A stretch of 64,000 nt of DNA. Origin: Bacteroidota bacterium. GTDB taxonomy: Bacteria > Bacteroidota > Bacteroidia > Bacteroidales > UBA4417. The stretch covers positions 135,373 to 199,372 of the forward strand of contig JACAAZ010000007.1 of the NCBI GenBank assembly GCA_013376995.1, written 5' to 3'. The notes under the pieces are model-generated. The model saw nothing but the letters and a program-made list of their open reading frames with translations. It was not told where the DNA came from and made no database searches. Positions 1 through 60,509 of this stretch are shown piece by piece; within the stretch, counting starts at the first letter, position 1; the number at the start of each line of letters is the position of its first letter. Both the position numbers and the translations under genes were made by a program.

Positions 1-55
1 AACAGTTATTAGGATTGTTTAACAGTGCTTAACATTAGTATTCTAAAACCTTTTC

Positions 56-63
56 TAAATTTG
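56..63 (+). promoter_or_regulatory. candidate Bacteroidota -7 promoter box (TAAATTTG; TAnnTTTG consensus)
   Basis: Exact TAnnTTTG match 48 nt upstream of the ATG at 112, followed by a 44-nt G-free A/C-rich leader (68..111). Confidence 0.35.
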
Positions 64-111
64 CTCGTTCATTACAAACAACCAAATAACAAACATTAAA
101 AAACAATTAAA

Positions 112-35897: not shown

Positions 35898-36234
35898 TAA
35901 TCGGGTAGTTGTGTTTTGTTTAGCACTTAGGGCTTAGCGCGGGGTGTTATGGTTTGGCGTTCGACGTTTGGGGTTCCTGGTTCTTGGTTCCATGTTCAGA
36001 GTTCTGTGTTCCATGTTCCATGTTAAGCTTTCTTTATTGAGTCTTTCAGTTTCTATATCATTCTTACTACTTGCTTCTTGCTTCTTACTTCTTTCTACCT
36101 GCTTCTTACTTCCTACTTCCTACTTCCTACTTCCTACTTCTGTCTTCTTACATCCACTTTTATCTTTTGTCTTTCTCCTTTTGTCTTTTATCTTAAACTA
36201 CCCGCTTCGCTCTCAGCGCTTTGCTCTAAGCTCA
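35898..36234. repeat. mosaic heptamer-repeat spacer between nuoD and nuoE (region B)
   Basis: 337 nt non-coding. It has TACTTCC x4 plus TACTTCT (36107..36141), GTTCCAT(G) repeats (35987..36024) and CTTTT(A/G)T words. GCTTAGCGC and CAGCGCTTTGCTCTAAGC blocks sit at the ends. Confidence 0.9.
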
Positions 36235-37446
36235 TCACGCATCCAACTCCCCGGCGATCACGTTCATGCTGCTCATGGTAAGGATAGCATCCGATAAAAC
36301 ACCTCCCCGGATCATTTCGGGATAGGCCTGGTAGTAGATGAATCCCGGCCTGCGGAAATGCAGCCTATATGGAGTTCTGCCTCCATCGCTAACCAGGTAG
36401 AATCCAAGTTCTCCGTTACCACCTTCTACAGCATGGTAAACTTCTCCGACCGGGGGATTCACTTCTCCCATCACGATCTTGAAATGCCAGATCAGGGATT
36501 CCATTTTACTGTAAACATCCTCTTTAGGAGGGAGGTATATTTCAGGAACATCAGCATGATATGGACCTTCTGGTAAATTGTCCAGCGCATTCCTTACGAT
36601 TTTCAGGCTTTGCCAGAGCTCTTCCTGGCGCACACAGAAGCGGTCGTAAGTATCACCATGTGTTCCTATCGGTATTTCAAAGTCAAAATCTCCGTAGGAT
36701 GAGTAGGGTTGGGCAACTCTTACATCATAATCAACCCCGGCAGCCCTGAGGTTAGGACCTGTGAAACCATAATTCAGTGCCCGCTCTGCCGTTATAGGTC
36801 CAACACCAATGGTCCGGTCCATGAATATTCGGTTTCGCTTAAGCAGCTTCTCAAATTCTCTAAGGACTTTAGGCAAATGATCCAGCAATTCCCGGATCTT
36901 TTTTATGGCTTTTGGAGAAAGGTCACGCTCGAAACCGCCTATTCTACCCATATTAGTAGTAAGGCGGGCGCCGGAAACTTCCTCGTAAATTTCGTAAATC
37001 TTTTCACGTTCCTGGAAAACGTATACAAAACCAGTAAGGGCACCACTATCAACACCAATAACCGAATTGCAAATCAGGTGATCGGTAATTCGCGCCAATT
37101 CCATCAGGATGATGCGCATATAATCGACCCGTTTGGGCATTTCGATTCCAAATAGTTTTTCTACTGTCATCATCCAGCCCAGGTTATTGATGGGGGAGGA
37201 GCAATAGTTCAGCCGATCAGTAAGCGGGGTGATCTGGTAATAGGGGCGGTGTTCTGCCAGTTTTTCGAAAGCACGGTGGATATAGCCTATGGTCTGCTCA
37301 GCATCGATCACGATCTCGCCATCCATTTTAAGGACATTCTGAAAGATACCGTGTGTTGCCGGGTGGGTTGGGCCCAGGTTCAGGGTGCTGTAGACCGGGG
37401 TTTCGACTTCTGCAGGGGGCATAGGCTGATGGACATCGTTTTTCAT
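36235..37446 (-). CDS. nuoD: NADH-quinone oxidoreductase subunit D
   Basis: 403 aa (…LNLGPTHPATHG…, …HRAFEKLAE…). It overlaps nuoC by 4 nt. Confidence 0.95.
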   Translation of the reverse strand: MKNDVHQPMPPAEVETPVYSTLNLGPTHPATHGIFQNVLKMDGEIVIDAEQTIGYIHRAFEKLAEHRPYYQITPLTDRLNYCSSPINNLGWMMTVEKLFGIEMPKRVDYMRIILMELARITDHLICNSVIGVDSGALTGFVYVFQEREKIYEIYEEVSGARLTTNMGRIGGFERDLSPKAIKKIRELLDHLPKVLREFEKLLKRNRIFMDRTIGVGPITAERALNYGFTGPNLRAAGVDYDVRVAQPYSSYGDFDFEIPIGTHGDTYDRFCVRQEELWQSLKIVRNALDNLPEGPYHADVPEIYLPPKEDVYSKMESLIWHFKIVMGEVNPPVGEVYHAVEGGNGELGFYLVSDGGRTPYRLHFRRPGFIYYQAYPEMIRGGVLSDAILTMSSMNVIAGELDA

Positions 37447-52446: not shown

Positions 52447-53106
52447 TTAATGCAGCCTTGAACCTATCAGGTGGATGAATTCGGCACGTGTTTTATCCAC
52501 GAGGAAGGCTCCATTGAAGTCGGAAGTAGTGGTAACTGAGTTCTGTTTCTGGATGCCTCTCATGCTCATGCACATATGCTGGGCTTCAATAACTACGGCT
52601 ACTCCCAGGGGTTTCAGTGTATTATGGATGCACTCCTTGATCTGGGTGGTCAGGCGCTCCTGAACCTGCAGGCGCCTGGCAAAGGCATCCACGACTCTTG
52701 GCAGTTTGCTTAATCCAACGATGTAACCATTTGGAATATAAGCAACGTGTGCTTTGCCAAAGAAGGGGATCATATGGTGCTCGCACATTGAATACAGTTC
52801 AATATCCTTAACAATGACCATCTGTTTGTAATCTTCCTTGAACATTGCAGATCGAAGAATTTCTTCTGGTTCCAGGTCATAGCCGTGGGTAAGGAATTGC
52901 ATGGCTTTTGCAACACGTTCAGGGGTTTTAAGCAAGCCTTCCCTTGTAGGATCTTCCCCGATCAGTTTCAGGATTTCAGAATAATGCACTGCCAGTTCCT
53001 TAATGGTCCCGGCATTGTATAGGTCCCGCTTTTCATATCCATCCTGTTGAGGATAATCGTCCATCATATTTTCTACAATCATATCTTTTACTATCTCACT
53101 ACTCAT
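52447..53106 (-). CDS. folE: GTP cyclohydrolase I
   Basis: [21 protein letters not shown] and [14 protein letters not shown]. Confidence 0.95.
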
Positions 53107-53321
53107 GGGGTGAAGGTGTTATTGTCTGTTGTTAGTTATTGGTAATTGATGATTAGTTATTGGTAATTGGTGATTGGTTATTGGTTATTGGTTATTGGTT
53201 ATTGGTGATTAGTTACTGGTAATTAGTTAGTTCCGGTTAAGGAGGATTGCATTTTCTTGTATTACAAGGCTCTTCGCCCTTTGCCCTACGCGCTGCACCC
53301 TAAGCCCTTTGCGCTAAGCAT
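53107..53321. repeat. mosaic heptamer-repeat spacer between the PTPS/QueD-family gene and folE (region D)
   Basis: 14 perfectly phased heptamers TRGTDAT (53133..53230). A GC-rich block of phased 7-mers (CCCTTTG CCCTACG CGCTGCA CCCTAAG CCCTTTG CGCTAAG CATTCAG CGCTGCG) runs into the stop codon at 53322. Confidence 0.92.
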
Positions 53322-53744
53322 TCAGCGCTGCGCATTACCATAGTATTCAACATAGTTATTCTCAGTTTCATAAAGCTTGACACAATGAAGTTCAGCGCCA
53401 AGCTTCCTGACTTCTTCTTCAAGTTCATTCCATATCCCGATTGAAATATTTTCGGTTGATGCCAGCCGGCCTGCCATGAAGTCAACTTCCAGGTTGATAT
53501 TCCGGTGATCCAACTTTTCTATGATACGGTCATTTATCAATGCGCTAAGCACTTTCAGATCGACCAGGAACCCGGTTTCAGGATTAACTTCTCCCTTTAC
53601 AGTAACAAATAATTCATAGTTATGCCCATGCCAAAGAGGATTGGAACATTTCCCGAAAACCTGCAGGTTCTGTTCATCGCTGTATTCAATTCTGAATAAA
53701 CGATGTGCTGCATTAAATCTTTCCCGACGTGTTATGAATATCAT
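53322..53744 (-). CDS. 6-pyruvoyl-tetrahydropterin / 6-carboxy-tetrahydropterin synthase family protein
   Basis: 140 aa with FNAAHRL and CSNPLWHGHNY (Cys plus HGH zinc and catalytic motifs). Confidence 0.85.
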   Translation of the reverse strand: MIFITRRERFNAAHRLFRIEYSDEQNLQVFGKCSNPLWHGHNYELFVTVKGEVNPETGFLVDLKVLSALINDRIIEKLDHRNINLEVDFMAGRLASTENISIGIWNELEEEVRKLGAELHCVKLYETENNYVEYYGNAQR

Positions 53745-58880: not shown

Positions 58881-59077
58881 AGGAGAGATAGGGGAAAAGG
58901 GGACAAGGAGTGAGTCGCCCAATAGTCAAACAATAGTCATTCATTGGTCACTCAATTGTTAATTGAAAGGAAAGCATTAAACCGGGAGCAAGGTTCTATG
59001 TAATTAATAAAGATATTCAATCCAAAACCAATAACGTATTACCGGTAACCTATAACCTATAACTAATCACCTGCACC
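58881..59077. repeat. mosaic repeat spacer upstream of dxr (region E)
   Basis: GGGGAAAAGGGGACAAGG words, an 11-mer array CAATAGTCAAA / CAATAGTCATT / CATTGGTCACT (58920..58952), and CCAATAAC and CCTATAAC words just before dxr. Confidence 0.85.
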
Positions 59078-60241
59078 CTGAAACGAAGAATAGCCATACT
59101 TGGATCTACAGGCTCCATTGGAACACAGGCGCTGGAAGTCATTCGCGACCATCCCCGTGAACTGGATGTCGAAGTGCTTACTGCACATTCCAATGCCCCC
59201 CTTCTTATCAGGCAGGCCCTGGAATTCAAGCCCAATGTTGTGGTTATTGCTAAGGAGAGCATGTACGAAAAGGTACATGAAGCCCTGGATCCTTTTGACA
59301 TCAAAGTATATGCTGGAGAAGAGTCCATTTCGCAGGTTGTTGCAATGGATACAATCGACATGGTGCTTGTAGCCCTGGTAGGATTTTCGGGACTGAAGCC
59401 GACCATTGAAGCCATCAAGGCACAAAAACCCATTGCTCTTGCAAATAAGGAGACATTGGTGGTAGCAGGTGAACTCGTCACCCGTCTTGCTAAGGAGAAA
59501 GGTGTTAACATTTACCCAGTTGACTCTGAGCATTCGGCGATCTTTCAATGCCTTGCCGGGGAATTCCATAACCCGGTCGAAAAAGTTATCCTCACCGCCT
59601 CCGGCGGGCCATTTAGGGGAATGGACCGCAAAGCATTGGAAAAAGTAAGCAAGGACCAGGCCCTTAATCATCCAAACTGGAAAATGGGCTGTAAGGTCAC
59701 TATTGACTCTGCTTCTATGATGAACAAAGGTCTTGAGGTTATTGAAGCCTGCTGGCTATTTGGGCTCAAACCTGAACAGGTTGATGTGATCATTCATCCG
59801 CAGAGTATTATTCACTCCCTTGTGCAGTTTACTGACGGAGCGATGAAAGCCCAAATGGGGCTGCCTGACATGCGCCTTCCCATTCAATATGCTCTTGGAT
59901 ATCCACAGCGGATGAAATCTTCATTTCCGCGGTTTAACTTCCTGGATTATCCCCAACTGACTTTCCAGGCTCCGGACCATGAAGCTTTCCCCTGCCTGGA
60001 TCTTGCCTACAGCGCAATGAAAAAGGGTGGAAATATGCCTTGTGTGATGAATGCGGCGGATGAAATTGCAGTGCATGCTTTCCTTCGTGAAGAGATCAGT
60101 TTCCTCCAGATCCCTGAACTCATTGAACAATGCATGAACACTTCAGGTTTCATTCAAGCTCCAGGCTTTGACGAGTTTATGCTGACGGACCAGGAAACCA
60201 GGATGCTGGCAAATGAGGTATTGCGTAAAATGAAACGATGA
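59078..60241 (+). CDS. dxr: 1-deoxy-D-xylulose 5-phosphate reductoisomerase
   Basis: (L/M)KRRIAILGSTGSIGTQALEVI NADPH motif, NKGLEVIEA, 3' end at 60241. The 5' end is uncertain. The conserved N-terminus lies upstream of the first GTG (59174) with no ATG/GTG/TTG after the in-frame stop at 59060; CTG at 59078 is proposed. Confidence 0.85.
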   Translation: MKRRIAILGSTGSIGTQALEVIRDHPRELDVEVLTAHSNAPLLIRQALEFKPNVVVIAKESMYEKVHEALDPFDIKVYAGEESISQVVAMDTIDMVLVALVGFSGLKPTIEAIKAQKPIALANKETLVVAGELVTRLAKEKGVNIYPVDSEHSAIFQCLAGEFHNPVEKVILTASGGPFRGMDRKALEKVSKDQALNHPNWKMGCKVTIDSASMMNKGLEVIEACWLFGLKPEQVDVIIHPQSIIHSLVQFTDGAMKAQMGLPDMRLPIQYALGYPQRMKSSFPRFNFLDYPQLTFQAPDHEAFPCLDLAYSAMKKGGNMPCVMNAADEIAVHAFLREEISFLQIPELIEQCMNTSGFIQAPGFDEFMLTDQETRMLANEVLRKMKR

Positions 60242-60509
60242 TCGTCTTACCTTTGCAGGGAGAGGCAGTGGTCACACAATAGTCAAACAATGGTCAAACA
60301 ATGGTCAAACAATGGTCAAACAATGGTCAAACAATGGTCATTTCCGTCGGCTGACGGATCATTCAATTGGCGTAGGGCATAGCGCTTAGAGGGGGTAATA
60401 AGGAGATAAAAGCTTTGCATCTTTGCGCCTTTGCGAGAGAAAGAATAGTCAGACAAGAACGAACAAACAATAACCAATAACTCATAACACATTATCCTTC
60501 AACATATAT
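60242..60509. repeat. mosaic repeat spacer between dxr and rseP (region F)
   Basis: 11-mer array TGGTCAAACAA x about 7 (60269..60345, four perfect copies), the 16-bp inverted repeat (60343..60358) and GCATAGCGCTTAG. It also has CTTTGCATCTTTGCGCCTTTGCG and a 48-nt G-free CCAATAAC/CTCATAAC leader (60462..60509). Confidence 0.92.

Follow-up and report, generated by a model that had tools for sequence, protein, structure and literature searches.

The present analysis concerns the spacer that separates a PTPS/QueD-family gene from folE, the gene coding for GTP cyclohydrolase I, in the genome of a Bacteroidota bacterium (assembly GCA_013376995.1; 5.05 Mb, 42% GC), whose nearest named relatives are metagenome-assembled genomes of Lentimicrobium/Lentimicrobiaceae. 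The window, i.e., the whole stretch of DNA that was analysed, comprises 64,000 nucleotides of contig JACAAZ010000007.1, and all positions are counted from its first letter. The spacer is 215 nt long and consists, in mRNA-sense order, of a GC-rich heptamer array, a linker, a CCAATAA-type heptamer array, and a 12-nt proximal leader (Table 1). Since the folE orthologues align across residues 1-219, the ATG at 53106 is taken as the conserved folE start, and the upstream protein is named at the family level only because it scores under the NCBIfam QueD equivalog cutoff. The queD-folE synteny is conserved across the genus and also in other families of the same order. With moderate confidence, this region can be regarded as an intra-operon spacer made of two heptanucleotide simple-sequence arrays, presumably born by slippage, in which the start-proximal array would act as a passive leader of folE.

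Table 1. Genes and spacer elements of the queD-folE locus, with positions in the window.
Feature	Positions	Strand	Remarks
folE, GTP cyclohydrolase I, 219 aa	52447..53106	-	PF01227 E=1.6e-75; TIGR00063 254.7 bits, above cutoff
Proximal leader CACCTTCACCCC, 12 nt, immediately 5' of the folE ATG	53107..53118	-	
CCAATAA-type heptamer array, 14 clear and 2 degenerate in-phase units	53119..53230	-	G-poor, no start triplets, TAA in all frames
Non-repeat linker, 41 nt	53231..53271	-	
GC-rich, purine-rich heptamer array, 9 units, type SGCDDAG	53272..53334	-	Supplies codons 138-140 (AQR) and TGA
PTPS/QueD-family gene, 140 aa	53322..53744	-	PF01242 E=5.7e-34

On the forward strand, the clear units of the CCAATAA-type array read, from 53133 to 53230, TAGTTAT TGGTAAT TGATGAT TAGTTAT TGGTAAT TGGTGAT TGGTTAT (four times) TGGTGAT TAGTTAC TGGTAAT TAGTTAG. 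The original prediction, made from the sequence of the window, had described here 14 phased heptamers, a single G in the 109 nt that precede the folE ATG, and stop triplets in every frame, and all of this was reproduced: parsing gave exactly 14 x 7 nt (16 units when the two degenerate ones are counted), the composition of the 109 nt was A53 C34 G1 T21 in mRNA sense, and 5, 6 and 7 stop triplets were found in the three frames of the 215-nt spacer. The presence of stops in every frame is automatic for any stop-containing 7-nt unit, because 7 and 3 are coprime. Tandem Repeats Finder (TRF) called the array at 53135-53229 with period 7, 13.6 copies and a score of 113, and its lag-7 identity of 0.77 was reached by none of 20000 shuffles (0/20000). 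Its core is formed by four perfect copies placed between diverged copies, and a 21-nt super-repeat is present. With the degenerate in-phase units, ACAACAG ACAATAA in mRNA sense, the array reaches 53119 and leaves 12 nt before the folE ATG, and the distance of 12-26 nt from the array end to this ATG, in forward orientation, is as seen in start-proximal heptamer repeats. The folE leaders of relatives likewise finish with ...ACC/CCC ahead of the ATG. As a whole, the folE leader is 49% A, almost G-free, devoid of upstream start triplets, and predicted to be unstructured; ATG, GTG and TTG are absent from the last 145 nt 5' of the folE start in mRNA sense, and only 3 of the 1867 leaders of the genome contain no more than one G over the same 109 nt. 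Regarding the linker, a perfect 6+1+6 palindrome, CTTGTAnTACAAG, was observed at 53256..53268, and CCUCC, the anti-Shine-Dalgarno core word, occurs in mRNA sense at 53241..53245; either could be due to chance.

The phasing of the GC-rich array is weaker. In its best register, the sense strand reads TGCGCAG CGCTGAA TGCTTAG CGCAAAG GGCTTAG GGTGCAG CGCGTAG GGCAAAG GGCGAAG (53334..53272), with a lag-7 identity of 0.57-0.58 and a lag-14 identity of 0.62-0.65 (shuffle p<=5e-5), and the array was missed by TRF at score 30. Its first base is the third position of the Asn137 codon, and it includes the Ala-Gln-Arg codons and the TGA stop (53322..53324) of the PTPS/QueD-family gene, whose last 13 nt fall within the array. 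It was observed that, among 31 orthologues from the genus and the order, all but three stop 0-2 residues past a conserved EY(F/Y/L)G, with the endings G*, GG*, GN*, GT*, GD*, GK*, GS* and GE*, and that the ending found here, GNAQR*, is present in this genome only. In the five GN* orthologues, the stop comes directly after the Asn codon, at the place where GCG CAG CGC TGA is found here, and in the relative with the closest FolE (G044, 93% identity), the spacer of 87 nt carries no GC array and the QueD protein ends in EYFG*. These results agree with two statements made beforehand, namely that the final codons of the gene, stop included, are encoded by the repeat block itself, which corresponds to the three codons (AQR) and TGA lying inside the phased array, and that the 3' end of the gene has been remodelled, since the tail is lineage-specific and repeat-free orthologues do not share this C-terminus. 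The GC-rich array has thus rewritten the 3' end of the gene, by three residues. Such remodelling is probably neutral in functional terms, because the tail past the conserved G is variable in the family anyway; tails of +8 and +15 residues are found in two orthologues without any repeat. A relaxed G-quadruplex motif, GGGCTTAGGGTGCAGCGCGTAGGGCAAAGGG, lies in the GC-rich array, 15 nt past the stop of the PTPS/QueD-family gene, and GGGCUUAGGGUGCAGCGCGUAGGGCAAAGGG may be considered a candidate G-quadruplex former.

The locus was found to vary among relatives. Across the orthologous loci compared, the folE spacer measures 0-215 nt, the upper value being that of this genome. In congeners, the folE leader carries CCATTAA-type arrays (up to ~200 nt), CCCATCAAT arrays, or none, and two genomes that are rich in CCAATAA (G005 and G055) present no array at folE. 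Four units are found at folE in G044, the closest relative, and since this short CCAATAA remnant occurs there without any GC block, the two blocks come and go independently. In this respect the original prediction was not supported: it had treated both blocks as one element, which is contradicted by the G044 locus and by the existence of two separate genome-wide classes (142 GC-rich and 67 CCAATAA-type tracts). Nor is the tract specific to folE, given the diversity of the downstream genes and the absence of the array at folE in several relatives, including the two CCAATAA-rich ones. The folE locus thus turns over quickly while the G-poverty of the leader stays. In the genus search, the reversed-pattern control was uninformative, as AATAACC is a rotation of CCAATAA. 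Outside this genome, the exact FolE protein was recovered from a single contig, which comes from an independent short-read assembly of the locus (Logan contig SRR12042537_1249, bases 1..96) and stops within the perfect (CCAATAA)4 core of the array. No other record of the exact QueD-family protein was found, and a metagenome scan for the leader-start junction gave no match. In another relative, a non-coding stretch of ~1.5 kb (G004:C1:4711263-4712646) consists of a ~420-bp unit repeated about four times in tandem, each copy holding CCATTAT and TCCATTG heptamer arrays, which amounts to a higher-order repeat of heptamer arrays.

As to signals for transcription and structure, the Bacteroidota -7 box TAnnTTTG was not found in the sense strand of 53107..53340, even in a relaxed form, and no intrinsic terminator (GC hairpin followed by a U-run) was found on the minus strand of the queD-folE spacer; an internal promoter or terminator was therefore rejected, neither having been found. 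The Rfam scan at gathering thresholds gave 0 matches, and a permissive scan gave one chance match, located inside the queD-family gene. The fold z-score of the spacer was 0.16, which is not significant. A riboswitch or another structured leader (tetrahydrofolate, preQ1 or folE motif) was discarded on these grounds, with no match in two Rfam scans and no significant fold. From a spacer sequence that has no -7 box, terminator, Rfam match or significant fold, we infer that folE shares a transcript with the PTPS/QueD-family gene and that this mRNA includes the arrays. The same tendency was observed in the genome as a whole. Among co-directional spacers with 100-199 nt of non-array sequence, the -7 box was present in 2/33 array-bearing vs 175/488 other spacers (Fisher p=2e-4), and with all co-directional spacers considered it was present in 24/104 and 446/1088, respectively. 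Words of the TACCTTTG type, which correspond to this box, are the top strand-biased words in the 80 nt upstream of starts, ACCTTTG occurring 95 times in sense vs 4 in antisense, and this strand bias is usable as a promoter predictor for this genome. Moreover, leaders with CCAATAA arrays are predicted to be nearly unstructured and to fold much more weakly than others, with a median minimum free energy from -60 to +30 of -3.7 vs -10.1 kcal/mol (p=2e-12).

Heptamer arrays are estimated to number ~230-290 in this genome. TRF returned 226, 172 and 116 rows at periods 7, 14 and 21, with a lesser peak at 11, and a lag detector independent of TRF gave 234 lag-7 arrays totalling 14.2 kb, compared with 1-57 arrays at each of the other lags from 5 to 13 (54 at lag 11 and 57 at lag 5). 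Most of the lag-7 arrays are intergenic (190/234), 33 being genic and 11 located at contig edges, and their units include CCAATAA, SGCDDAG, AAAAGAY and GGAAGYM. Tracts with at least three CCAATAA-like units number 67, of which 54 face a downstream gene on the same strand, mostly within 100 nt, and the AT-rich array of the queD-folE spacer is the longest of them. The 142 GC-rich tracts are of the CDDAGSG type, and ~35 of them begin -5 to +35 nt from a stop in the same sense; the stop codons of at least 32 genes fall within heptamer arrays. The genes behind 41 CCAATAA leaders include folE, a deaminase gene, pnuC, phoU, fabG, purC, rseP, metG, murC, miaA, ilvE, nuoK and others, names that come from a reading of the sequences and not from a database search; given the functional diversity of these genes and the lack of a shared theme, a regulon specific to folE or queuosine was rejected.

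The placement of the arrays was found to follow the direction of the flanking genes. Of the intergenic arrays, 149 lie in co-directional, 27 in convergent and 14 in divergent spacers, as opposed to 124, 21 and 45 expected by spacer length (chi-square p=9e-7). Divergent spacers, which hold promoters only, thus show a three-fold depletion of arrays, and the other two kinds an enrichment. In co-directional spacers, arrays that are purine-rich in sense lie nearer to the stop in 65 cases vs nearer to the start in 7, with a median distance of 43 nt from the stop, and G-poor mixed arrays adjoin the downstream start, at a median of 38 nt. Arrays of the AACCAAT class are all in sense (15/15) and located 2-89 nt upstream of a start, and in convergent spacers the orientation of the array flips with the nearer gene. 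The triplet content of the arrays also depends on the strand. Arrays up to 60 nt past a stop contain more stop triplets in sense than in antisense in 48 vs 17 cases (p=1.5e-4), and those without any stop triplet number 13 in sense and 33 in antisense; for arrays up to 60 nt before a start, ATG, GTG and TTG are completely absent from 31/38 in sense vs 5/38 in antisense (p=5e-6). Ordinary leaders are themselves depleted in G, with 11.8% at -20..-1 vs ~16.7% further upstream. Array-free post-stop regions are T-rich and not purine-rich, by which a local background was ruled out as the source of the post-stop purine richness. A polarity set by replication rather than by genes was likewise rejected, because purine-on-sense prevails on both strands (24:9 and 25:18), although GC skew is weak here and this test is noisy. 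From this emerges a testable rule on what selection permits these repeats to be: stop-rich when they follow stops, and start-free when they precede starts.

These observations can be brought together in a model in which heptamer arrays would arise and expand via replication slippage, an origin suggested by the perfect four-copy core, the diverged flanks and the 21-nt super-repeat, all of which fit it. Once formed, only those arrays that neither fold nor open or extend a reading frame would be retained in transcribed spacers. In the queD-folE spacer, the purine-rich GC array would have grown up to the end of the PTPS/QueD-family gene and then over its last 13 nt, where the frame would have been closed after three new codons (AQR-TGA) because the array units carry stop triplets. 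The CCAATAA-type array would in turn be transcribed as the folE leader on the queD-folE message, and because it has almost no G, this array is expected to form no G-C or G-U pairs; it contains no AUG, GUG or UUG. In this way, ribosomes would be loaded onto the internal cistron across a passive stretch of leader that has neither structure nor start codons. It is known that Bacteroidota ribosomes disregard Shine-Dalgarno sequences through sequestration of the anti-Shine-Dalgarno (PMC7797042), and that in Flavobacterium johnsoniae low structure, upstream adenines and depletion of AUG around starts tune initiation, with A favoured at -3 and -6 (PMC6847099). The orientation patterns described above fit a simple translational constraint of such Shine-Dalgarno-less Bacteroidota.

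However, several points weigh against this reading. The gene calls used in the genome-wide tests are crude, consisting of open reading frames (ORFs) of at least 80 aa taken from the first ATG. The argument based on stop triplets accounts for the post-stop purine richness only in part. In a 400-kb sample of the relative G004, arrays are present and the polarity rule is less clear, and in G055 about 5 of 12 CCAATAA arrays abut a start in the same sense. The folE start has C at both -3 and -6, and does not represent an optimal Kozak-like context. In addition, a small set of units is shared by dozens of loci, 67 for the CCAATAA type, which is poorly explained by independent local slippage. Such recurrence, together with a weak enrichment of single-copy CCAATAA in ordinary leaders (1.4-1.9x), may reflect selection acting on the word, or some spreading route.

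This last point bears on a rather unlikely alternative to the passive leader, in which the CCAATAA array would be an mRNA platform for a single-strand-binding protein with a footprint of ~7 nt (bS1, or a protein with a cold-shock domain or RRM), which would recruit ribosomes or control a broad post-transcriptional network, an idea put forward by MacGregor for the TAACTGA repeats. The bias of the 67 loci toward downstream starts (54) and the placement of all 15 AACCAAT arrays speak for it, and since single-copy words are barely enriched, the array form seems to matter. The array units are also 1-2 mismatches from TAACTGA, a heptamer that MacGregor 2015 found right upstream of starts, citing the binding of one heptamer per protein by CspB (PMC4679880), and bS1 is thought to contact positions -12 to -15 in Bacteroidota (PMC6847099). 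Nevertheless, a platform of this kind is at odds with the fact that the array is missing or different at folE in most congeners, CCAATAA-rich G005 and G055 included, that units drift between species (CCATTAA, CCCATCAAT) and precede genes without a theme, and that 13 of the 67 tracts, and about half of those in G055, point away from any start.

A more elaborate proposal, which we hold to be decidedly unlikely, is that heptamer arrays make up an organised, position-specific system and are not merely tolerated stutter. Here, GC-rich arrays of the (G3N4) type, placed on the sense strand right after stops, would fold into G-quadruplexes or form R-loops, causing RNA polymerase to pause or shielding the ends of upstream mRNAs. 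An OB-fold protein, either bS1 or a cold-shock protein, would read the CCAAUAA arrays in register, 7 nt at a time, and load ribosomes on internal cistrons of operons that lack Shine-Dalgarno sequences. If this were true, the recurrence of few units would reflect selection for words or an active seeding process.

It is highly unlikely, in turn, that the array works as a contingency locus, in which slippage would add or remove units, thereby changing the spacing or the stability of the leader and tuning folE output from cell to cell. The perfect four-copy core would be a substrate for slippage, copy number at the folE locus ranges from 0 to >20 units between species, the independent short-read contig mentioned above breaks in this core, and a mechanism based on a heptamer repeat in the 5' untranslated region is reported for Haemophilus influenzae (PMC12721329). 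Against this stand the hundreds of arrays beside housekeeping rather than surface or contingency genes, the lack of a spacer promoter to be re-spaced and of a hairpin for RNase III, and the empty metagenome scan for the leader-start junction.

Rho-dependent attenuation was given a very small probability. The C-rich, G-poor and unstructured 110-nt tract would in this case be a Rho loading (rut) site that attenuates transcription of folE when the leader is uncovered, setting folE below queD. Rut sites of Escherichia coli are classically C-rich, G-poor and unstructured, and the leader resembles them in having 31% C and 1% G over 109 nt, CC every 7 nt and essentially no structure, besides an absence of any intrinsic terminator in the spacer. 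However, similar tracts precede essential genes such as metG, murC, purC and fabG, where polarity would be costly, and equivalent spacers are occupied by purine-rich arrays, which are not rut-like. Finally, although GC-rich words such as GGGTGCAGCG and TTAGCGCAAAG recur between regions of the window and four of its spacers share the order GC-rich, purine-rich, G-poor, there is hardly any chance that both blocks form one inserted mobile or palindromic cassette, whether similar to a miniature inverted-repeat transposable element or to a repetitive extragenic palindrome, or a heptamer hairpin bridging stop to start: the queD-folE spacer has no inverted match or inverted termini and a fold z-score near zero (given above), the arms GSGCWWA and CCAATAA are not complementary, inverted matches show no genome-wide excess (5/135 array-bearing vs 20/300 array-free spacers), the sequence that follows the CCAATAA arrays of G055 changes from locus to locus, and G044 keeps a CCAATAA remnant without the GC block, so this candidate was rejected.

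The queD-folE arrays belong to a kind of heptamer repeat that is already known. MacGregor 2015 described direct repeats of the heptamer TAACTGA right upstream of starts in marine Beggiatoaceae, some Cyanobacteria and five Bacteroidetes (PMC4679880). The arrays analysed here are similar in that they consist of tandem intergenic 7-nt units, in forward orientation, ending a few to tens of nucleotides before a start, at many loci per genome and with no theme downstream, with other heptamers in the same spacers and relatives that lack repeats at the site. Some units of this genome (TAACTAA, TAACCAA) are 1-2 bases off TAACTGA, and those of the queD-folE spacer are 1-4 mismatches away; no tandem TAACTGA doublet was found in the genome (0). 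Unlike the TAACTGA repeats, which mostly have 2-6 units in the Beggiatoaceae genome, the arrays here have 14-16 units and are G-free, and a distinct purine- and GC-rich class abuts stop codons.

Long simple sequence repeats (LSSRs), with units of 5-11 nt, were reported by Mrazek, Guo and Shah 2007, according to the summary contained in PMC4679880. As in LSSRs and in the short tandemly repeated repetitive (STRR) sequences of cyanobacteria, in which the heptanucleotide is the commonest class, location is intergenic, phylogenetic spread is sporadic and slippage has been proposed, the present genome displays tandem 7-nt repetition beyond chance, a period-7 excess that is mostly non-coding, and lability of units and copies between relatives. 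To our knowledge, the STRR consensus units are different words from those found here, and we know of no description of LSSRs or STRRs that includes a gene-relative orientation rule or an overlap with stop codons.

Two further systems share some of these traits. The initiation regions of Bacteroidia are also A-rich, unstructured and depleted of AUG (Baez et al. 2019, PMC6847099), a trend that ordinary leaders of this genome follow more weakly. They differ, however, in being defined by position-specific preferences (-3, -6, -12, -13), two of which folE does not follow, and not by tandem repeats. In H. influenzae, the simple sequence repeat of hmw1A/hmw2A is likewise a slippage-variable 7-nt tandem repeat in the 5' untranslated region, and it is reported to lie between promoter and gene, at a contingency locus for surface adhesins, with a hairpin cut by RNase III (PMC8262952, PMC12721329). 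By contrast, the folE spacer has neither promoter nor hairpin and precedes a housekeeping gene, and the arrays of this genome are spread over hundreds of loci.

Intergenic heptamer repeats of unexplained function are widespread among Bacteroidota and cyanobacteria. The queD-folE spacer offers a small and clean example in which one array has overrun a stop codon and rewritten a C-terminus, and a second one makes up a leader free of G, in a lineage whose translation initiation does without Shine-Dalgarno pairing. There are also practical consequences, as short-read assemblies break inside arrays, which hides copy-number variation, and annotation is affected by spurious ORFs on stop-free array strands and by gene ends shifted by arrays. 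Such ORFs result from the pyrimidine-rich strand having no stop triplets; an ORF of 117 aa lies wholly within the heptamer mosaic of Region B (window 35944..36297, + strand).

Some additional observations were made in the course of the analysis. The genome contains 81 canonical G-quadruplex motifs (G3+N1-7 x4), of which 53 are intergenic and 34 come after a stop in the same sense, at a median of 25 nt; many correspond to (GGGNNNN)n arrays, which are heptameric by construction. The N-terminus of dxr (KRIAILGSTGSIGTQALEV; window 59025..59176) is encoded 3' of a G-poor tract of the CCTATAA type, and between the in-frame TAA and this motif there is no ATG, GTG or TTG, with CTG or ATC as the sole available initiators. 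Besides periods 7, 14 and 21, the only other strongly over-represented period is 11, with 54 tandem arrays of 11-nt units that add up to 5.3 kb genome-wide, one of which is found in the window at 60269..60340 as 6.5 copies of TGGTCAAACAA.

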